DNA of 64,000 nt, taken from Candidatus Thorarchaeota archaeon. GTDB taxonomy: Archaea > Asgardarchaeota > Thorarchaeia > Thorarchaeales > Thorarchaeaceae. Every line of letters starts with the position of its first letter. The first letter of the stretch is position 1. The notes below the pieces were generated by a model, which worked only from the letters and a program-made list of their open reading frames with translations, was not told where the DNA came from and did no database searches. Location of the stretch: the NCBI GenBank assembly GCA_018335335.1, contig JAGXKG010000001.1, positions 169,801 through 233,800 of the forward strand. The letters are read 5' to 3'. Positions 675 to 55,253 of the stretch are shown here, one piece after another. Both the position numbers and the translations under genes were made by a program.

Positions 675-2869
675 AACCGTACCATCGGTTTTATCGTTCG
701 ATATTTAAGCTCGAACAAAAGAGAGAGCACTATTCAATTGACATTAAAAGAGGTCTTACTCTGAAAAGAACGATAATAATAGCTGAGAAGCCTCAAGCAG
801 CAAGACGGATATCCAAAGCCCTCGCCACAGAGGGGATTTTCACGGAAAACAAAAAGGGAAAGGCTTCCTACTTCGAATTTGAGCGTGAAGGGGGGAAAGT
901 ATGTGTTCTCTATGCGTTGGGGCATCTATATGAGCTCAAGCAGTCAGAAAAAGGATGGACATATCCTCGGCTTGAAACAGAGTGGGTACCTAAGTATGAG
1001 GTAGATAAGAAAGACAAGAGAAGCAGGGCATTGATTGAACTAATTCAAAAGGTAGCAGATGGGGCACAGGATTTTCTGATTGCTACCGATTTAGACATTG
1101 AGGGTAGCCTGATAGGATATCATGTACTCAAGTATGCCTGCCGAGAAAATCCGCAGAAGGCACAGCGGATGCATTTCTCAACGCTTACAAAAAAGGAACT
1201 TCGCAAAGCGTATGAGAATCCATCCGAGCATCTTGATTTCCCCATGATAGATGCGGGCATAGCCAGACATGAGATTGATTGGCTCTATGGAATCAACCTT
1301 ACCCGAGCATTGACCCTTGCAATCAAAGAAGTTACTGGATGGTTCAAAATCGTTAGTACCGGAAGGGTTCAAGGACCTACTTTGTCTTTTGCGGCAGAGA
1401 GAGATGGACAGGTAAATCTCTTTGTTCCAAAGCCCTTTTGGGTGATACTTCCAAAGGGAAGATTTGGTGGAGAGGAGTTTGAACTTGAATACTCCAAGAA
1501 TAGAATAGGACGAAAGTTGGATGCAAATGAGATTAGAATAGAATTACTCGATAGTCAAGGCAAGGTAGAAGAAATTAGGCGAAGAAAATTTGAAAGAAAA
1601 CCCCCAGTTCCCTTCAATCTCAGCGGACTTCAATCAGAGACTTACAGGCACTTCGGCTTCAAACCAAGTCGGACTCTGGCCATCGCACAATCGCTTTACC
1701 TTCGTGCACTCATTTCATACCCTCGAACAAGCAGTCAGAAACTGCCAGAGAGTATCGACACCAAGGAAATATTCGAGCAACTCAAAGAGCAGAAACAATA
1801 TACCACGTTAGTACAGAAGATTCTGAAAAACGAAAAAATCACACCTAGACAAGGAAAAAAGAAGGATCCTGCGCACCCAGCCATCCATCCCACGGGAAAG
1901 AAACCGGAAAAAGCACTCTCATCTAGCGAAGCAAAAGTATACGATCTTGTGGTTCGGCGTTTCTTTTCTGTATTTGGAAAGAATGCTGTAAGAGAGAGTA
2001 TACGAACAGATATTCGTTGCAAGAAACATGTACTCTACGCGAGGGGGATTAGAACCGTCGATACAGGATGGATGGTATACTACGGCGAATACGCTTCACA
2101 AGAAGAGAAAGCAATACCACGCTTTGAAGTAGGCAACACCATAGCCATCACAGCGGTAGATGTTGATGAAAGATATACTTCGCCACCCCCCAGATACAAT
2201 CCATCAAGTATGGTGAAAAAATTGGAAAAGGTTGGGCTGGGAACAAAGGCAACTCGAGCTGGAATAGTGGATTCATTAAAATCACGGGGATACACGATTG
2301 GGGATCGATTTGAACTATCAAAACTTGGTTATGCCATTTACGAAACCCTGAATCACTACATTCCAGAGATTCTCTCTGTTGAGATGACGAGAGAGCTTGA
2401 GGACAAGATGAAGGAAATACAGGAAGGAAAGCGGAGTTTGGATGAAGTACTAGAAAACACAAAAGAGACGCTTTCAAAGTTGTTGGAGACATTCAGAGAA
2501 CGAGAAGAAGAAATAGGAAATGACCTAGTCCATGGATTGAAAAGATATTGGAAAGATAAGAGGGAGTTAGGGGCCTGCCCAAAATGTGACGATGGCATGC
2601 TAGTAATTGTGCGTTCACAGAAGACCGGGAAGCGATTCGTGGGTTGCTCCAACTACAAAAAGACGGGGTGTGACCAAACCTATCCGCTACCACAAAAAGG
2701 AGAAATTACCCCCTTTGATGAGAAATGCCCACATTGTGGACATCAGATGATCCGAGTACACTCAGGTAGACGCCCCTGGAAAACCTGTGTAAATTGGGCT
2801 GATTGTCCAGGAAGACAAAAAGACTTGAAGAATCTGAAGAACAGAAGAGAGGAGGAGGGAGAGGAATGA
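596..2869 (+). CDS. topA: DNA topoisomerase, type IA (Topo III-like), with C-terminal zinc ribbons
   Basis: TOPRIM start (TIIIAEKPQAARRISKAL), acidic TOPRIM motif (IATDLDIEGS), active-site Tyr motif (LISYPRTSS) and two C4 zinc ribbons at the C-terminus (CPKCDDG..C..C and CPHCGH). There is no in-frame alternative start between 596 and the TOPRIM, so the N-terminal extension is uncertain. Confidence 0.85.
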   Translation: MATKASTVLPQIDCFQSPLLRVSWDTKPYHRFYRSIFKLEQKREHYSIDIKRGLTLKRTIIIAEKPQAARRISKALATEGIFTENKKGKASYFEFEREGGKVCVLYALGHLYELKQSEKGWTYPRLETEWVPKYEVDKKDKRSRALIELIQKVADGAQDFLIATDLDIEGSLIGYHVLKYACRENPQKAQRMHFSTLTKKELRKAYENPSEHLDFPMIDAGIARHEIDWLYGINLTRALTLAIKEVTGWFKIVSTGRVQGPTLSFAAERDGQVNLFVPKPFWVILPKGRFGGEEFELEYSKNRIGRKLDANEIRIELLDSQGKVEEIRRRKFERKPPVPFNLSGLQSETYRHFGFKPSRTLAIAQSLYLRALISYPRTSSQKLPESIDTKEIFEQLKEQKQYTTLVQKILKNEKITPRQGKKKDPAHPAIHPTGKKPEKALSSSEAKVYDLVVRRFFSVFGKNAVRESIRTDIRCKKHVLYARGIRTVDTGWMVYYGEYASQEEKAIPRFEVGNTIAITAVDVDERYTSPPPRYNPSSMVKKLEKVGLGTKATRAGIVDSLKSRGYTIGDRFELSKLGYAIYETLNHYIPEILSVEMTRELEDKMKEIQEGKRSLDEVLENTKETLSKLLETFREREEEIGNDLVHGLKRYWKDKRELGACPKCDDGMLVIVRSQKTGKRFVGCSNYKKTGCDQTYPLPQKGEITPFDEKCPHCGHQMIRVHSGRRPWKTCVNWADCPGRQKDLKNLKNRREEEGEE

Positions 2870-3099
2870 GTAGCTGTGTAATTTGTGAACGTGATTTATC
2901 AGGGCAGAGCAATCTTTGTGAATACCACCTGATGGCAAAGAAAAACATTGAGAAGAGATACGATGACTGGAAACGGGCTCTTGATATCCCCTATGAGAAT
3001 TATTTGCAAGAATTGTGTGAAAATGACGCAACGGGACGGTGGGTCAAGGATGTTGCTGATGCTATTCTTGCTGGAGATGTTGTTTCAGCGCCCTCATGA
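2866..3099 (+). CDS. Small Cys/His zinc-ribbon protein (77 aa), translationally coupled to topA
   Basis: Its ATG overlaps the topA stop (ATGA). MSSCVICERD...CEYH gives a C-x2-C...C-x2-H arrangement. No known family recognised. Confidence 0.45.
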   Translation: MSSCVICERDLSGQSNLCEYHLMAKKNIEKRYDDWKRALDIPYENYLQELCENDATGRWVKDVADAILAGDVVSAPS

Positions 3100-3418
3100 C
3101 GCCCATGGTAGAAGATCTATCAAAATCCTTCACAGAAACGACCAATATACAAGCCTGTTCCGTCCAGCTGGAAATACGTTCAGCTAGAGTTCGTGCCAAT
3201 GTTGAATCGATAGCATTTGAAAAGAGAGTCGTAGAAGTTGGCTCATTCCTACCTCTTCCTTCGGGTATACTGACAGCAGTATTTCCCAATCTGAATTTAC
3301 TTGAATCCGAAAGTAAAATAATCAGGCCATTTTCGAGATACATTACCCGTACTCTAAGTGATCCTGTTTTTGTCTCAACGTCAAAATCATTGATATTCTT
3401 AGCGTCCATGGAATCCAC
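3062..3418 (-). CDS. Roadblock/LC7 (MglB-like) domain protein
   Basis: The translation has Roadblock-like blocks: RVMYLENGLIILLSDSS (compare MglB ..VVFLVDKNGQLISSAG) and a C-terminal ILVVSVKDFDRSSTMGVMRALKQ (compare ..VVLVVIFDNRTSLGLVRLRIKKA). Probable GTG start. It is antisense to a 116-aa plus-strand ORF that I judge to be a shadow. Confidence 0.45.
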   Translation of the reverse strand: MDSMDAKNINDFDVETKTGSLRVRVMYLENGLIILLSDSSKFRLGNTAVSIPEGRGRNEPTSTTLFSNAIDSTLARTLAERISSWTEQACILVVSVKDFDRSSTMGVMRALKQHLQQE

Positions 3419-3512: not shown

Positions 3513-5438
3513 ATGAAAACTGAATTCGCTTCACATGATTTCTTCCCCTATAAACAACAAAGACCAGGACAGAACGAGATGATGGCCCGCATAGAGGAGG
3601 GTGTTAGACGAGGCAAGAATGTCTGTGTGGAAGCCCCTAACGGATTTGGAAAAACAGCAGTTACATTGGCAGGTACACTTCCTTGGGTGAAGGAGAATGA
3701 TGGAACCATTCTGTATTGTGCTCGCACTCATCGGCAATTAGATCGAGTGATGGAAGAACTCAAGGAGATAGAAGCAAGGGAAACGGTAAGCGGAGTGTCA
3801 TTTAGAGGGCGAAGCCATATGTGCGTGAACCCTTTTGTCTTAGAGAATACAGATTATGTTTCATCCTTAGGGGATGTATGTGGGCAGCTTAAAGCTAGCA
3901 AAAGATGTGCTTATTACGAGAATCTAAAAGAAAGAGGGGGAGCAATGGCGCTGCTTGAGAAAATGCCTTCGTCCGTACTGAAAGCTCCAGAGATTGTGAA
4001 GTTCGCGGCCAAACATGACCTCTGTCCTTATGAATTGGCAAAACGGCTTGCAAAGGTAGTTGATGTAATATCACTCTCATATCTGTATGTTTTCAGCCCA
4101 TTTGTTCGAGAAGCTTTTTTTCCCGAACTAGAAAAACCAATGTCGAAAATGGTATTGATACAGGACGAGGCACACAATGTTCCAAGTACCGCACTCGATT
4201 CGGCAAGCGATTCACTAACAGTTGGAATCGTTAGGCAGGCAATTAGAGAAGCCTCAACTTACAATGACAAGAAGACCAAGAAGTTTTGCAAAGGCTTGGC
4301 AGAAACTATTCTAGATTTGTCAGCAGGGATGAAGGACTATGATGAGATAGGTGTCAACCCCAAGGCCATCTATGAAACAGCAATAGAAAAATCCGGTTTA
4401 GGGGAGAGAGAGCAAATTCTCATGCATATGGAAGATATGGGGAATAATATCCGAAAAGGATTGCTCAAGGCCGGGAAATTTCCAAGGTCAACTATTCATA
4501 GAGTAGCAGCATTCATGATGAACTGGCTGAAATACGTTGAGCACGATGACTACGCATTCTTGATGGAATCTGAGATAACTAGGAACAAGAGCAGGAAGGT
4601 TTCACTAGAGCTTGTTGCATTAGATCCTACAGCTGTTACATCTCCCATTCTGCGTTTAGTCGGGAGTTCTGTAGCCATATCCGGAACTCTTTCACCTCTG
4701 GATGCGTATTCAGAAATGCTTGGGTTTGGTTCGGATGCTAAGAACCTGACATACTACAACCCATTCGCTAAGGAGAACAGAAAAGGAATAGTTGTTGAGA
4801 ACGTGGAAACTTCATACAGATCAAGAACAAAGAAGATGTTTGACAGAATAGTAGCACACTGTGCTGCCATCGTACGGGCTACCCCCACGAACACGGGTAT
4901 TTTCACAACCAGTTATGGGCTGATTAAAGAGCTGATGTCAGCGGGGCTAGAAAGAAAAATCAATAAGAAATTGTTCGTCGAAAGACGGGGTCTTAGAGGG
5001 TCTGAGAACGACAAACTCGTGGAAGATTTCAAAAAGAGAGCTGAAAACGGGGGGGCGGTGTTGCTTGGAGTGCAAGGTGGGCGCAATTCAGAAGGAGGTA
5101 ATTTCCCAGGCTCCAGCATGGAAAGCGTTGTAGTTGTAGGAGTGCCTTATGCAAGGCCTACGCCAAGAATCGAAGCGTTAATCAATTACTATGATAAGCG
5201 ATTTAACAACAAGGGTAGAGATTACGCTTATGTTCTACCAGCTATGACCAGAGCAATACAGGCTGCTGGAAGACCAGTAAGAAAGCTTGATGACAAAGGA
5301 GTAATAGTATTTCTAGATCAGCGATTCGCAACCGGCTATCTGAAGAGATTTATGCCAGATTGGCTTATCGAGGTCACCCATACACTTCCAGATAGTCCCA
5401 ATTTGGTAGAAGAGGAAGTGCAGGCTTTCTTTCAATAA
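3513..5438 (+). CDS. xpd: XPD/Rad3-family 5'-3' DNA helicase with Fe-S domain
   Basis: Walker A (EAPNGFGKTAV) and a DEAH box (IQDEAHN). Four-Cys FeS cluster domain between the motifs (C..CGQLKASKRCAYYENLK) and a C-terminal helicase domain (QAAGRPVRK). Confidence 0.85.
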   Translation: MKTEFASHDFFPYKQQRPGQNEMMARIEEGVRRGKNVCVEAPNGFGKTAVTLAGTLPWVKENDGTILYCARTHRQLDRVMEELKEIEARETVSGVSFRGRSHMCVNPFVLENTDYVSSLGDVCGQLKASKRCAYYENLKERGGAMALLEKMPSSVLKAPEIVKFAAKHDLCPYELAKRLAKVVDVISLSYLYVFSPFVREAFFPELEKPMSKMVLIQDEAHNVPSTALDSASDSLTVGIVRQAIREASTYNDKKTKKFCKGLAETILDLSAGMKDYDEIGVNPKAIYETAIEKSGLGEREQILMHMEDMGNNIRKGLLKAGKFPRSTIHRVAAFMMNWLKYVEHDDYAFLMESEITRNKSRKVSLELVALDPTAVTSPILRLVGSSVAISGTLSPLDAYSEMLGFGSDAKNLTYYNPFAKENRKGIVVENVETSYRSRTKKMFDRIVAHCAAIVRATPTNTGIFTTSYGLIKELMSAGLERKINKKLFVERRGLRGSENDKLVEDFKKRAENGGAVLLGVQGGRNSEGGNFPGSSMESVVVVGVPYARPTPRIEALINYYDKRFNNKGRDYAYVLPAMTRAIQAAGRPVRKLDDKGVIVFLDQRFATGYLKRFMPDWLIEVTHTLPDSPNLVEEEVQAFFQ

Positions 5439-22468: not shown

Positions 22469-22576
22469 GGGTCGGTGGTCTAGCTACTCTACCACATTTT
22501 TGTACTAGAGCTAGAATGGCGAGATTCTCGGTTCGGGTCCGAGGGATCGTGAGTTCAAATCTCACCCGGCCCACCA
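22469..22576 (+). tRNA. tRNA-Pro(CGG) with a ~32-nt intron in the D-loop region (non-canonical position); CCA encoded
   Basis: Read directly. Acceptor GGGTCGG / CCGGCCC (one G-U). D-stem GTCT/AGAT separated by 40 nt instead of about 8. Anticodon arm CTCGG-TTCGGGT-CCGAG (anticodon CGG, U33, G37). Variable GGATC. T-arm GTGAG-TTCAAAT-CTCAC. Discriminator A, then CCA. Exon-flanking TCTAGCT (22479-85) pairs with AGCTAGA (22509-15), enclosing the intron. Confidence 0.7.
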
Positions 22577-46363: not shown

Positions 46364-49300
46364 CTAGATCAACTCCTTTAGCCTTAGTCGGGGTGCAAGC
46401 CCTAGCGACATCATTTCTTGGCAGAGCAATTTGAAAGCATATGATACAACAACTCTACTTACCTTTGCATCCGAACCGCAAATCGGGCAGTAGTAGCTAT
46501 CACGGTTACGGTCATATACGCCAATCAGGCCGCATTCTTCACAGACAAGCATTGTGCTCCTGTCTGATTCCTCAAGGAGACGACCTTTGAGAAGCATTGC
46601 AGCACCATGTCCGATAAGTACATCTCGTTCCATCTCTCCAAAACGAAGACCTCCTTCGCGAGCACGACCTTCCGTTGGCTGCCTAGTGAGAATCTGTACA
46701 GGGCCTCGTGCACGAGCATGGATTTTGTCCGCAACCATGTGATGGAGTTTCTGATAATAGATTACTCCGAGAAAAATATCGGTCTTGAGCTTTTCACCCG
46801 TTACTCCAGAGTACATGGTCTCGCGGCCATTATGCTGGAATCCATGTTCCTTGAGGGTTTCAAATAGCTCTTCCTCTGTCACTCCGCAGAAGGGAGTAGC
46901 ATCTTTCTGTCGACCTTCGACTGAAGACGCTTTTCCAGCAATCATTTCGAGGATTTGTCCAATGGTCATTCTCGAAGGAATAGCATGGGGGTTAAGAACC
47001 ATATCTGGAACAATACCCTGCTCTGTGAAAGGCAAATCTTCCTGGGGAGCCAGATATCCAAGAACTCCTTTCTGGCCATGACGGGAAGCGTATTTGTCAC
47101 CAAGCTCTGGGACCCTTAGATCCCGCACCTTAACCTTCACAAGACGATTTCCATCAATTGTCTCAGTTAGAATTACGTTATCTACGACTCCTGACTCACC
47201 GTGTCTTACAGCAACAGAGGTTTCACGTCTATTTGGTGAAGTAATCTCGAACTCTGAATATTCTTCAAGGAATCGTGGAGGTGAAGTTCGTCCAATAAGA
47301 ACATCACCACCTTGAACTTCAACTTCTGTTTCAATAATACCATCTTCACCGAGATTGCGATAAGCTTCAGATGCTCGGTATCCGCGCACGCTTCTCTCAG
47401 GTATTTCAAATCGATCTTCCTGACCGCCAGGATACTTCCGTTCCTCGCTATCGTATACTCGACAGAATGTACTTCTGCTCAAACCTCTGTCAATTGAGGC
47501 CTTGTTCATAATCAAAGCATCTTCGATATTGTAGCCTTCAAATGACAGAATCGCCATGACCACGTTCTGACCTGCTGGGCGGTCTTCATAACCTATCGAA
47601 TCCATAGCTCTTGTCGTGACCAAGGGAATCTGCGGATAGTGGAAGAAATGAGAGCGGGTATCAGCACGATGATTAAAATTTGACGAGGGGACACCTATTG
47701 ATTGCTTGGCCATACCGGCCATGTATACGTTACGTGGAGACTGATTTCGTTCAGCGAAAGGTATCAAAGCTGCGGATATACCAAGGATAGTTGACGGTTC
47801 AATCTCCAAGTGGGTTGTATCAGGCCCAATATCATCGGGATACATTGCAATGAGGGCATTCTCTTCCTCCTCTGCGTCCAAGAATTCTACGAGTCCGTTT
47901 CGCATCAAGTCTTGAAACTGCCATTCTCCATCCATTACCATTCTGAGATGTTCTTTGGTCAAACGGCTCTTGCCATTCTCTACTACTATTAGTGGTCGTC
48001 TAACCCTGCCAGCATCACAGTTCACTTGAACTTCATGTGTGTTTTCATAATATGCGACGTTAGTCTCTGAGTCGATTTCGCCAGCTTGTCTTTTTTGGCG
48101 CATGGTTTTTGCTAGCACCTTAGGAGCAGCATGAACTCCAATAAGACGCCCATTCAAAAATACATCTGCCCATTTCTGGCCCCGTTTGCCCTTCAGACTT
48201 TCAATTGGTTCAACATCAGCTTGAAGGAGTACACGTTCGATTGGATCTTCGTCGGTTCCTACCGAAATGTACGCCATCATCGCAATATTCTTGACAAGAC
48301 CACAGTTAGGACCTTCGGGGGTCTCATTTGGGCATATCTTCCCCCAATGGGTAGAATGAAGGTCTCGAGCCTCAAAGTGAGGTTGTGATCGTGAAAGCGG
48401 TGAAACTACTCTGCGCAGGTGAGATAGGGAAGATATGTAGTTAGTACGATCTAGTAGTTGGGAAACTCCAGCCTTTCCCCCAACCCAATTTCCGGTAGCA
48501 AGAGCGTGCTTAAGACGTTGTGTAATAACATCTGCTCTAACCGCGGTTCTGATATTGGGTTTTCTACCGCGTGTGGCAGTTCGCTCCAGTTGATATTTTA
48601 TGTCACGATTCAAAGAGTACAATGCAACCCGGAAGAGTGACATCAGAAGGTCACCAGAGAGTTTTAGTCGCTTGTTAGCGTAATGGTCTTTGTCATCAGC
48701 CTTACGCTTGCCCAGGACAAGCTCTAGAAGACGCTCAATCATCTGTCCAAGGTAGTAAGCCTTCTGGAGACGATTCTCGGGATCAGTCCCAACGTGAGGG
48801 AGCAAATATCTGTCGAGAACCTTCTCAGCTCGCGAAAGGCGATATTCCTTTGTCTGACCAACGGCCACTCGCTTTCCAATATAGTCCAGTGCGTTGTCTT
48901 TGGTAGAAGCCTCTGGATCGTCTCTATCAGCATTTATTGGTGCAGACTGTTCAATAGTAACAATAAGCTCATTCCGGATTTCATCATCATCAGAGATGAC
49001 ATCAACAATTTCTCTGTCGGATTCCAATCCAAGAGCCTTGAGCAATATTGCCAATGGAATCTTACCTGGAACTGAGGGGAATGATGCTCTTAGTTCTCCG
49101 GTTCTTTTCCGTTCAATTGATGCTGGAGCTCTAAAGCCCCTTGATGTCGAAAATACCTTAGCAACATGAGTGTTGCTGGAGCTCTTGCTCGCCTCTTCAA
49201 TTAGAATCCTATTTGGTGCAAGATCTTCCTGGGTAACCAGTACCCGCTCAGAACCGTTAATTATGAAGTAACCTCCAGGATCCTTGGGATCTTCACCATG

Positions 49301-49738
49301 TTCGATAAGTTCTTCATCTGACATCCCGTGTAGCAGACATTTCTCACTTCGAAGCATGATTGGAAGATCGCCAACATAAATCCGGAGCGTTTCCATTCTA
49401 GTTGATACAGAGCCATCTTTCCTGACCGGTGTCATCTCGAGATACAACTTGGCCGCATAGGTCAAATCCCGGATTCTAGCTTCATTTGGATAAAGCGGAT
49501 GCTCGCTTCCATCAGCTTCTCTAATTGAGGGTTCTTGTACGGTTACATCACCAAGCTCTACATGATAGTCCTCAACCTTGGGCGTAATCTTCCCAATGTC
49601 GTCGACCACTTTCTGTAACTCTTCGTTGACAAACCTGTTGAATGAGTTAAGATGCTGACCCACCAGGCCGTAGTAGTCGAAGAAAGCCTCAATAACCGGC
49701 CAGTAATTTCCACGTTCTTTTGCGTCTAATGCAGCCAT
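46364..49738 (-). CDS. rpoB: DNA-directed RNA polymerase subunit B (unsplit)
   Basis: A single 1124-aa ORF covering both Rpb2 halves (..GQKGVLG.., ..GEMERDVLIGHGAA.., C-terminal zinc ribbon CEECGL..CPICG). It abuts rpoA' with no gap. Confidence 0.9.
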   Translation of the reverse strand: MAALDAKERGNYWPVIEAFFDYYGLVGQHLNSFNRFVNEELQKVVDDIGKITPKVEDYHVELGDVTVQEPSIREADGSEHPLYPNEARIRDLTYAAKLYLEMTPVRKDGSVSTRMETLRIYVGDLPIMLRSEKCLLHGMSDEELIEHGEDPKDPGGYFIINGSERVLVTQEDLAPNRILIEEASKSSSNTHVAKVFSTSRGFRAPASIERKRTGELRASFPSVPGKIPLAILLKALGLESDREIVDVISDDDEIRNELIVTIEQSAPINADRDDPEASTKDNALDYIGKRVAVGQTKEYRLSRAEKVLDRYLLPHVGTDPENRLQKAYYLGQMIERLLELVLGKRKADDKDHYANKRLKLSGDLLMSLFRVALYSLNRDIKYQLERTATRGRKPNIRTAVRADVITQRLKHALATGNWVGGKAGVSQLLDRTNYISSLSHLRRVVSPLSRSQPHFEARDLHSTHWGKICPNETPEGPNCGLVKNIAMMAYISVGTDEDPIERVLLQADVEPIESLKGKRGQKWADVFLNGRLIGVHAAPKVLAKTMRQKRQAGEIDSETNVAYYENTHEVQVNCDAGRVRRPLIVVENGKSRLTKEHLRMVMDGEWQFQDLMRNGLVEFLDAEEEENALIAMYPDDIGPDTTHLEIEPSTILGISAALIPFAERNQSPRNVYMAGMAKQSIGVPSSNFNHRADTRSHFFHYPQIPLVTTRAMDSIGYEDRPAGQNVVMAILSFEGYNIEDALIMNKASIDRGLSRSTFCRVYDSEERKYPGGQEDRFEIPERSVRGYRASEAYRNLGEDGIIETEVEVQGGDVLIGRTSPPRFLEEYSEFEITSPNRRETSVAVRHGESGVVDNVILTETIDGNRLVKVKVRDLRVPELGDKYASRHGQKGVLGYLAPQEDLPFTEQGIVPDMVLNPHAIPSRMTIGQILEMIAGKASSVEGRQKDATPFCGVTEEELFETLKEHGFQHNGRETMYSGVTGEKLKTDIFLGVIYYQKLHHMVADKIHARARGPVQILTRQPTEGRAREGGLRFGEMERDVLIGHGAAMLLKGRLLEESDRSTMLVCEECGLIGVYDRNRDSYYCPICGSDAKVSRVVVSYAFKLLCQEMMSLGLAPRLRLKELI

Positions 49739-50017: not shown

Positions 50018-50338
50018 GTGCATTGCAGTAGACCATGTGCAACACAAATGACTAGATAACGATGTACACCATTATCTTGTCTTTGATGCGGCATATGGCC
50101 ATGCATGAGTGGGAAGCAATCCTGCTTGAGCATCGAACGGGAATTTTGTATGAATAAAAGATTTTCCTTAAGACAAGCTAATTTGGCATATCATCTGCTC
50201 AAATGAGGGCAATGCACTGAGAAAATATATTGTGTAGATTACAAAAAAGGGTTATGCTGATGGTTTGACAACGACAACTTTAATAGAACTCTGCAAGTGG
50301 CCCCGTTGACTCGTCCAAGTATGGACAGGTTCAGTAGT

Positions 50339-50479
50339 GCCCCGGTAGTGTAGTCTGGCCATATCTATAGAAACGGTCTATAGGTATCAGAATAGCATCC
50401 GAGACTGTCACTATCACGATGTATAGCCATCGTGTCGGCCAATCTCGGGACTCGGGTTCAACTCCCGACCGGGGCGCCA
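50339..50479 (+). tRNA. tRNA-Asp(GUC) with two introns (one near the D-loop/D-stem junction, one canonical at 37/38); CCA encoded
   Basis: Acceptor GCCCCGG / CCGGGGC. D-arm GTGT-AGTCTGGCCAT..[~32 nt, about 50363-50394, with hairpin CTATAG-AAACGGT-CTATAG]..GCAT. Anticodon arm CGAGA-CTGTCA|[31 nt, 50411-50441, hairpin CACGATG/CATCGTG]|A-TCTCG (anticodon GTC). Variable GGAC. T-arm TCGGG-TTCAACT-CCCGA. Discriminator G, then CCA. Total 138 nt, about 75 nt mature. Confidence 0.55.
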
Positions 50480-50540
50480 CATTCGTTTTCTACTGATAGG
50501 GCAAGGTTAAGATGTGTTCTCATGCAATTAGTGGTGTTCC

Positions 50541-54295: not shown

Positions 54296-54402
54296 CGGGA
54301 CGTAGCTCAACCTGGCAGAGCAACGGACTGTAGTATTCGGTTCCGTTGGAATCGTTTCCAGATATCCGTCGGCTGCCGGTTCAAATCCGGCCGTCCCGAC
54401 CA
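54296..54402 (+). tRNA. tRNA-Tyr(GUA) with a 30-nt canonical (37/38) intron; CCA encoded
   Basis: Acceptor CGGGACG / CGTCCCG. D-arm GCTC-AACCTGGCA-GAGC. Anticodon arm ACGGA-CTGTAG|[intron 54334-54363]|A-TCCGT (anticodon GTA). Variable CGGCT. T-arm GCCGG-TTCAAAT-CCGGC. Discriminator A, then CCA. Confidence 0.7.
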
Positions 54403-54431: not shown

Positions 54432-55253
54432 TTAAGATGGATCAAAATAAGGAACAACTGTCATGGATGCAGATTTGTCAAAACGCCATGGCCGATCCAA
54501 GGTAACTCTCACAAAATACCAGCTAGTTATGAGGCGTGTTTTGAATGTGGGGGGAAAATCCTTTCGGGTGGGAATGCTCCAGTCAACCCATCGATTTCTC
54601 AGAATCTCTTCATCGGGTATTTCTCGTTGGTTAAGGACTCTCACCGTTCTTCGAGACCGGCCCCTTGCTCTCCGATTCTGACAATGAACAAGCTCCGCTC
54701 TAACACCACGGATCTCAATCTCATCAGGTACCCTGAACTGGAAGGGTATTCCATCTCCAAGACGGACAGAAGTTTCATCGAGCCGAAGTTCCAATACAGG
54801 ATTTCCTTTATGTTTAGCAGCCGCTCTATGTGCAGCGGTTGTTGCTCTAGCACCCGGCGAAAATACCCAAAATTCCTTCTGGTTTTCACAGTCAAAGGCC
54901 CATGAAATCGCAGCTTTAGCTTCAATCCAGTATTTGACTTGAGCTCCAGTTCCTTTGTAAGTTGGGGGTAATCCCATTGGTAGCGTAAAAGAGAAATCTA
55001 TGGGTGTCTTTCCAGCCCCAAACCGGGTTACGGTATTGACATCCAACTGGTGTTCAACAAGTTTTGTGGATCCTCTATATGTGCGCCGATCGTCTCCGTT
55101 ACCAACTGTGATACGGGTCCGTTCGGAACCGCGAACAAATACGGTGAAATCCTCACACTCAAAGAACTCATCAGTATGAACTGTAACAGTACCATTTACT
55201 TGCCGGCCAGCAAGATAGGCTTCCCTGTTCAGCTCGATATGTACTTCCCGCAC
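54432..55253 (-). CDS. Arrestin-N / SpoOM-like beta-sandwich protein
   Basis: Two internal repeats with the SpoOM/arrestin-N pattern: HIELNREAYLAGRQVNGTVTVHTDEFFECEDFTVFVRGSERTRITV and VLELRLDETSVRLGDGIPFQFRVPDEIEIRGVRAELVHCQ. Size 273 aa. Confidence 0.4.
   Translation of the reverse strand: MREVHIELNREAYLAGRQVNGTVTVHTDEFFECEDFTVFVRGSERTRITVGNGDDRRTYRGSTKLVEHQLDVNTVTRFGAGKTPIDFSFTLPMGLPPTYKGTGAQVKYWIEAKAAISWAFDCENQKEFWVFSPGARATTAAHRAAAKHKGNPVLELRLDETSVRLGDGIPFQFRVPDEIEIRGVRAELVHCQNRRARGRSRRTVRVLNQREIPDEEILRNRWVDWSIPTRKDFPPTFKTRLITSWYFVRVTLDRPWRFDKSASMTVVPYFDPS

Follow-up and report, generated by a model that had tools for sequence, protein, structure and literature searches.

A tRNA-Asp(GUC) gene interrupted twice in a Thorarchaeia-like Asgard archaeon: a conserved D-loop intron and a recently gained insert in the anticodon loop

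tRNA genes with several introns at non-canonical positions have already been published for Crenarchaeota (PMC4033280, PMC4090602) and for Asgard archaea (PMC11291895), and differences in intron content within one natural population have been published as well (PMC3293823). The case that we present in this study, a tRNA-Asp(GUC) gene interrupted twice within a 64,000-nucleotide stretch of archaeal DNA (the whole of which is referred to below as the window), is therefore incremental; its point of note is a young insert at position 38/39, poor in features of the bulge–helix–bulge (BHB) motif, and the way in which it may be removed. In the Thermoproteales and other Crenarchaeota, introns of about 30 nt are found in the D-loop at 20/21 and also at 53/54 and 59/60, with up to three per gene (Sugahara 2007/2008; Marck and Grosjean 2003; reviewed in PMC4090602, PMC4033280). 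These have BHB or relaxed hBH or HBh' motifs, are processed by an (alpha-beta)2 endonuclease and are gained and lost rapidly (PMC4090602, PMC4033280). The introns of the window resemble them in their length of about 30 nt, in the D-loop site and in the presence of several in one gene; however, they belong to another phylum, and 38/39 does not appear in the list of positions that PMC4090602 gives. Within the Asgard archaea, 92–95% of the tRNA genes of Atabeyarchaeia and Freyarchaeia are intron-bearing, with many non-canonical sites and with several introns in more than half (Valentin-Alvarado et al. 2024, PMC11291895), and in Freyarchaeia a two-intron tRNA-Asp(GTC) gene is directly followed by a three-intron tRNA-Lys(TTT) gene (PMC11291895, Supplementary Data 4). 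The superphylum and the Asp/Lys neighbourhood are the same in the window, but the lineage here is Thorarchaeia-like, the intron positions are fixed by insert-less orthologues, and the insert that lacks a BHB varies between near-identical strains. A third system is the tRNA-Thr(GGU) gene of Caldiarchaeum subterraneum, where related genomes in natural populations differ in a second intron (Sugahara et al. 2012, PMC3293823), the gain of which has been linked to a 1.8-kb mobile element encoding a recombinase and to a scattered tRNA fragment (PMC3293823). In both cases close genomes differ in whether a given tRNA gene has a second intron, whereas at the window locus no mobile element, repeat or tRNA fragment was found.

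We show here that positions 50339–50479 of the forward strand are a real tRNA-Asp(GUC) gene that is interrupted twice (Table 1). The gene is 141 nt long with its encoded CCA (50477–79) and 138 nt without it, and its exons sum to 78 nt. The acceptor stem is made up of GCCCCGG (50339–45) and CCGGGGC (50469–75), with G73 as the discriminator, the D stem of GTGT (50348–51) and GCAT (50395–98), including a G10–U25 pair, and the anticodon stem of CGAGA (50400–04) and TCTCG (50443–47). The loop sequence CTGTCAC (50405–11) contains the anticodon GUC at 50407–09, and the T arm reads TCGGG-TTCAACT-CCCGA. When 50361–92 and 50412–42 are removed in silico, a clean 78-nt cloverleaf is obtained that ARAGORN calls tRNA-Asp(gtc); the raw, unspliced gene is left uncalled by ARAGORN with and without intron mode and by Rfam both at the gathering score and at E<=10. 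The elements that we take to specify aspartate identity (G73, G34-U35-C36, C38 and the G10–U25 pair) are all present if the second insert is excised at 38/39, and C38 would become A38 if it were excised at 37/38. Folded to its minimum energy, the 141-nt precursor forms a cloverleaf in which two of the arms are extended (-60.1 kcal/mol, z = -4.8, none of 200 shuffles being as stable); this result, taken with the ARAGORN call after removal and with orthologues at 16 loci, makes the gene more than a chance resemblance. A first-pass annotation of this DNA had described a tRNA-Asp(GUC) gene of 138 nt with two interruptions, each of which contains an internal hairpin (CTATAG 50365–70 with 50378–83, and CACGATG 50415–21 with CATCGTG 50428–34), and in all these respects it was right.

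Judging from its sequence, the host is an Asgard archaeon in or next to Thorarchaeia, because the window RpoB, which is unsplit, is identical to P0124, a protein of a 'Ca. Thorarchaeota' metagenome-assembled genome, and shares about 86% identity with many RpoB proteins of Thorarchaeota, and because an archaeal signal recognition particle RNA is present in the window. Orthologous loci, designated by L-numbers, with W for the window strain, were found through contigs that code for variants of RpoB and for the DinB protein next to it. There are 16 loci with tRNA-Asp upstream of rpoB, with nine distinct precursor sequences among them, and in all 16 the gene adjoins tRNA-Lys and rpoB at one conserved position. 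The insert at 38/39 is found together with the D-loop intron in W and L008, which are 100% identical over 5.46 kb (the whole L008 locus), and in L013 (rpoB nucleotide identity to W 99.3%). The D-loop intron alone is present in L014 and L016 (98.5%; L015 has the same tRNA-Asp sequence), in L004–6 (95%) and in L011 (about 74%), and it is accompanied by a canonical 37/38 intron in L017–19 (85.5%). At about 74% identity, L002 and L010 have introns in the D-loop, at 37/38 and in the T arm at 53/54, and L012 has none, its tRNA-Asp being 78 nt long and likewise located upstream of rpoB. The loci, which rpoB nucleotide identity places in a consistent order, thus record intron turnover at fine resolution, the number of introns in tRNA-Asp being zero, one, two or three within one clade. 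The exons are identical across strains with 95–99% rpoB identity, and those of the window gene align gap-free with the intron-less L012. The synteny with rpoB is not universal, because L003 (86% RpoB) has no tRNA-Asp upstream of rpoB.

The position of intron 1 follows from this intron-less orthologue. The L012 sequence GUGU-AGUCCGGUCUA-GCAU defines a mature D-loop of 11 nt ending in CUA, and therefore intron 1 of the window is 50361–50392 (GGCC|...|UAGCAU), between C20a and U20b; its excision gives GGCC|UAGCAU as compared with GGUCUAGCAU in L012, of equal length, and a mature D-loop AGUCUGGCCUA. The comparison with the tRNA-Asp genes of relatives, which had been suggested as a check, thereby excludes the upstream insert from the mature D-arm. 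The first-pass annotation had placed this intron at the D-arm junction, and while the intron does lie in the D arm, its site is inside the loop and not at the junction with the stem. The D-loop (20/21) is a published non-canonical intron position, and in a BHB a 4-bp helix lies between two 3-nt bulges, within which the splice sites are found (PMC4090602). In this strict geometry, the central helix of intron 1 has all four pairs (CUGG, 50355–58, with UCAG, 50387–90), the bulges are CC|A on the 5' side (50359–61) and AA|U on the 3' side (50391–93), and an inner helix of 10 bp (50362–71 with 50377–86) directly adjoins the central helix; only 0.03% of shuffled introns attain even four of four central pairs plus four inner pairs. 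The motif is also supported by covariation in an alignment (A1) of the eight distinct orthologues that have intron 1. In this alignment 98.6% of the cells are paired, and the central helix and a 9-bp inner helix are paired in all eight sequences. Compensatory changes are seen at eight pairs, with 27 cells changed on both sides; they include seven of the nine aligned inner-helix pairs and a CG-to-UA change in the central helix (columns 9:42). None of 500 shuffles equalled the paired fraction or the covariation score, and pairing fell to <=50% when the partner strand was slid. A rival register, UCUG/CAGA with cuts GC|C and AU|A (50360–50393), is the minimum-energy fold; it would leave a 9-nt D-loop, 2 nt shorter than that of L012, and was rejected, since it offers an extra pair in only two of the eight orthologues. 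We therefore regard intron 1 as a well-supported D-loop BHB intron, and its distribution indicates that it predates the split of the two sampled sub-clades (about 74% rpoB nucleotide identity).

In L002 and L010, where the gene lies on the minus strand upstream of rpoB, each of the three introns is exactly 30 nt long and has a strict BHB, and the D-loop intron is again at 20a/20b. The D-loop and T-arm introns of these two loci have the loop motif AUCUC and the ending GGAA in common, which hints at a common origin. Pattern scans for D-loop introns gave one match each in the genome and metagenome collections, and these two distant analogues (L001, from a metagenome-assembled genome labelled Methanosarcinales, and L009, a metagenome contig) have a tRNA-Asp D-loop intron and the same predicted mature D-loop AGUCUGGCCUA. 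However, the insertion point is one or two bases away (20/20a in L001, 21/22 in L009), the intron sequences are unrelated, and L001 has an additional T-loop intron at 59/60, an insert read by eye. In L001 (positions 4868–5060; CAYTDO010000052.1, 'uncultured Methanosarcinales archaeon') the two-insert tRNA-Asp is directly followed by a tRNA-Lys(UUU)-like gene with a disrupted T arm. This contig may be misassigned, belonging to another genome, because non-canonical introns are unexpected in Methanosarcinales and the Asp–Lys pairing resembles the Asgard arrangement.

Insert 2 is likewise placed by comparison. In the sister alleles L004–6 and L014–16 the sequence is CTGTCAC|TCTCG, with the insert exactly absent and the exons identical, which fixes the 31-nt insert as 50412–50442 at 38/39; the boundaries can slide by one base (39/40) with the product unchanged. 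This is at variance with the canonical 37/38 site that had been assumed for the second intron at first. In nine out of nine other introns of the clade (five in the D-loop, two at 37/38 and two at 53/54) the intron defined by comparison is also the one defined by the strict BHB cut, and we therefore consider the placing of insert 2 by comparison to be trustworthy. The insert is identical in W, L008 and L013, and no other sampled strain carries it. As L008 is an independent Logan assembly (100% over 5460 nt) and L013 a distinct strain from a JGI metagenome of another sample, it is not an artefact. Within the whole gene, W and L013 differ only at a bulge base and at a hairpin-loop base. On the rpoB tree, insert 2 maps to one recent gain, in the common ancestor of W and L013, after this lineage had separated from strains with 98.5% rpoB identity. 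Short-word BLAST of the window and all fetched loci for a donor returned only insert 2 itself, and no box C/D guide RNA motifs were seen by eye in the introns, which are too short.

The structure of insert 2 differs from that of the other introns. At 38/39, strict BHB geometry gives three of four central pairs (UGUC/GGCC) with no adjacent inner or outer pairs, and elsewhere it gives fewer (one of four at 37/38, none of four at 39/40). An internal hairpin of 7 bp (50415–21 with 50428–34; -8.6 kcal/mol, z = -2.05) is offset by a 2x2 mismatch, and the 3' end, GGCC-AA|U, has the H3-AA|U form in which most introns of the clade end. The conformer with a 38/39 cut (G34:C50439, U35:G50438, C36:G50437) lies 1.5 kcal/mol above the minimum of the arm. 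Enumeration of all 31-nt excisions in the anticodon loop gave none with a strict BHB. One strict match, CCGA/UCGG (50405–50440), was rejected since it would delete the anticodon, and nested or two-step splicing was set aside since a BHB scan of the precursor gave no suitable inner candidate. A loose scan, which required only two of three flanking pairs, returned 28 matches in 220 nt and therefore has no evidential value; a BHB-like motif that it gave in the 5' leader (50306–50337) was dismissed as chance.

Taken together, we infer that insert 2 is an intron, and the locus is probably a functional, and probably single-copy, tRNA-Asp(GUC) gene with two intervening sequences that are both spliced out. 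Cleavage of archaeal BHB motifs falls after the second base of the bulge, and the nine comparison-defined introns of the clade agree with this; exon ligation is carried out by RtcB. According to the model that we propose, the gene would give rise to a precursor transcript of about 141 nt in addition to a leader, in which intron 1 and the exon bases C17–G19 would fold into a BHB. Both 3-nt bulges would be cleaved behind their second base by the archaeal splicing endonuclease (CC|A, AA|U). With insert 2 included, the predicted cuts are at 50360|61, 50392|93, 50411|12 and 50442|43, after which the three exons would be ligated and the 11-nt D-loop AGUCUGGCCUA formed. Asgard archaea, including a Thorarchaeota genome, have an (alpha-beta)2 endonuclease with an L1 loop that confers broad specificity and the use of relaxed motifs (PMC5829648). 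By analogy, insert 2 would most likely be removed by the same broad-specificity enzyme through a relaxed motif, consisting of the 3-bp central helix of the 38/39 conformer, the H3-AA|U end and the offset 7-bp hairpin, and its excision would restore the loop CUGUCAC. That this happens, as indeed transcription, cleavage and ligation in general, we infer from sequence comparison, and above all for insert 2: tRNA-Asp has one conserved position in all 16 loci, its exons are undamaged, W and L013 differ little within the gene, and another gene of the window, tRNA-Tyr, has an intron that is relaxed too. The more specific proposal, that insert 2 is an intron almost at birth, gained within less than about 1.5% rpoB divergence, devoid of a canonical BHB and nevertheless accurately spliced from an essential single-copy tRNA, is a tentative one, to which we give a little less than even credence.

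Several observations weigh against this reading. The outer helix of intron 1 is weak, with U16:A21 only (in six of eight sequences) and then a 2-nt offset (A14, G15) to the D stem, for which reason its motif is best described as an HBh'-like form. For insert 2 the difficulty is greater, as 21% of shuffled inserts reach at least three of four central pairs, so that its BHB is not significant; the sequence is identical in both carrier strains and leaves no covariation to read; and it is the sole exception among the ten comparison-defined intron cases scored for BHB. The last point would be expected if insert 2 were unspliceable, a 31-nt insertion in a crippled copy, with the cell relying on a tRNA-Asp gene elsewhere. 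The youth of the insert, which is confined to W/L008 and L013, fits this explanation too, as decay might not show yet. We nevertheless consider it unlikely, given that the gene occupies its one conserved position by tRNA-Lys and rpoB in 16 of 16 loci, that its exons show no damage and match those of functional-looking sister alleles exactly, that the insert persists in two strains from different samples, and that the window has another relaxed intron, in tRNA-Tyr. A single tRNA-Asp(GUC) gene is, moreover, usual in archaeal genomes.

If insert 2 is spliced, a canonical 37/38 intron would have some attractions: true 37/38 introns are present in this gene in L017–19 and in L002/L010, the central helix (C32:G50438, U33:G50437, G34:C50436, with a 4-nt 3' bulge CCAA) would stack directly on the anticodon stem with the hairpin following H3 gap-free, and three pairs plus a mismatch at U35 is also the pattern of the tRNA-Tyr intron in the window. 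However, besides the single central pair that strict geometry allows there, the 37/38-like fold is less stable than the 38/39 conformer by 3.3 kcal/mol (-15.9 as opposed to -19.2), a cut two bases after H3 would give an 8-nt loop, the predicted mature loop CUGUCAA has A38 where every insert-less or canonically spliced orthologue has C38, and the indel itself maps to 38/39, all of which makes this register quite improbable. Splicing at 33/34 (50406|50407 and 50437|50438) would yield the loop CUGCCAA and hence a tRNA-Gly(GCC), which is what ARAGORN calls when intron 1 alone is removed; but only two of four central pairs and no inner or outer pairs are formed at those cuts, G73 and G10–U25 point to aspartate, and the sister alleles without the insert carry GUC, so that the chance of this outcome is negligible. 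Finally, the gene being uncalled by both ARAGORN and Rfam might have raised the suspicion that insert 2, or the structure as a whole, is an assembly artefact or a chance resemblance. This is effectively refuted by the same sequence in L008 and L013, by the z-score of the precursor fold and by the orthologues in 16 loci.

If the preferred reading, excision of insert 2 at 38/39, is correct, it would limit the ways in which intron gain, and the recognition of substrates by the endonuclease of Asgard archaea, can be modelled. W and L013 as compared with L014–16 would then be a natural before-and-after system for the origin of archaeal tRNA introns, and would show how little structure is needed for substrate recognition by their (alpha-beta)2 endonuclease, which among archaeal enzymes is the one most closely related to the eukaryotic Sen complex. 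If insert 2 is not spliced, the locus would instead show, as is rarely seen, an essential tRNA gene in the course of being disabled.

Table 1. Features of the tRNA-Asp(GUC) locus and of other parts of the window (window positions).
Feature	Position	Strand	Remarks
Putative archaeal TATA-like promoter element TTTAATAG	50279..50286	+	52 nt 5' of the tRNA 5' end; presumed function
Exon 1: acceptor 5' strand, U8 A9, D-stem 5' strand GUGU, D-loop AGUCUGGCC	50339..50360	+	identical in W, L013, L014-16 and L004-6
Intron 1, 32 nt, D-loop 20a/20b	50361..50392	+	strict BHB, covariation, intron-less L012
Exon 2: U20b A21, D-stem 3' strand GCAU, C26, CGAGA, loop CUGUCAC	50393..50411	+	
Insert 2, 31 nt, UAUCACGAUGUAUAGCCAUCGUGUCGGCCAA, at 38/39	50412..50442	+	comparison with insert-less alleles
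Exon 3: UCUCG, variable region GGAC, T arm, CCGGGGC, G73, CCA	50443..50479	+	T arm also detected by Rfam models
Oligo-T run TTTT, possible archaeal terminator	50486..50489	+	read from sequence
tRNA-Pro(CGG)	22469-22576	+	
D-loop intron of tRNA-Pro(CGG), 29 nt	22487-22515	+	strict BHB
RpoB	46364-49738	-	unsplit
tRNA-Lys(UUU)	50017-49911	-	
T-loop intron of tRNA-Lys(UUU), 30 nt, 59/60	49957-49928	-	near-perfect hBHBh'
tRNA-Tyr(GUA)	54296-54402	+	canonical 30-nt intron, relaxed BHB
Arrestin-like open reading frame	54432-55253	-	

Introns are present in four of the five tRNA genes in the window. The tRNA-Pro(CGG) gene is missed by ARAGORN and Rfam, and after splicing in silico ARAGORN calls it tRNA-Pro(cgg); all four central pairs of its D-loop intron are formed (UAGC/GCUA), with bulges UA|C and GA|A. 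For tRNA-Lys(UUU), Rfam gives only a truncated match of 29.7 bits, and the spliced form is called tRNA-Lys(ttt). Its intron has four of four central pairs (UUCA/UGAA), the T stem as outer helix, and an inner helix that consists of a C:G pair, one C–U mismatch and then 8 bp. This intron is 100% identical in L004–L007. The tRNA-Lys orthologue of L003 (3760–3836) is intron-less, and that of L002 (3735–3843) lacks the T-loop intron but is interrupted in its variable region by about 32 nt, which suggests that intron turnover in tRNA-Lys is as fast as in tRNA-Asp. The tRNA-Tyr(GUA) intron has three of four pairs in its central helix (CUGU/CCAG) and an inner hairpin offset by an internal loop. In intron mode, ARAGORN reported tRNA-Asp(atc) with a bogus 14-nt intron for L004–6 (3290–3399), tRNA-Arg(acg) for L009, and tRNA-Gly(gcc) for the window gene minus intron 1 only. 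Asgard genomes annotated by ARAGORN or Rfam will thus seem to lack essential tRNAs, because these finders miss tRNA-Asp and miss or truncate two other intron-bearing tRNAs of the window.

The suggestion that the tRNA marks the boundary of an island did not hold up. The 28-nt 3' end of the tRNA has no second copy with <=3 mismatches within the 64-kb window, and there is no integrase among the six open reading frames downstream, which encode DinB, SIS, HEAT and SDR proteins, one protein with no Pfam match and an arrestin-like protein. Synteny of the DinB-SIS-HEAT-SDR block extends to L004–6 and L008, and L013–16 show the DinB and SIS genes. Compared with L004–6, identity is about 94% to the left of the tRNA (the rpoB side) and about 86% to the right (DinB-SIS-HEAT), and the BLAST alignment breaks exactly at insert 2 (50412 / 50440). 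The lower identity on the DinB-SIS-HEAT side may reflect genes that are less constrained than rpoB.

The motif CAACTTTAATAGAA, which in the window clade stands 52 nt 5' of the tRNA (50287–50338 lying between them in the window), is also found 5' of the orthologues in L002 and L012, there about 24–29 nt from the tRNA, so that the window clade has an extra leader of about 25–28 nt. This extra leader holds GCCCCG (50302–07), which resembles the acceptor 5' strand. In L003 (Thorarchaeota, GCA_011364985.1) an open reading frame of 558 aa with a Cas12f1-like/TnpB domain (1581–3257) is located upstream of tRNA-Lys and rpoB. Arrestin-like proteins are among the eukaryote-like proteins reported for Asgard archaea, and in the arrestin-like open reading frame of the window both the N-terminal and the C-terminal arrestin domain are present (Pfam E = 2e-16 and 1e-10).

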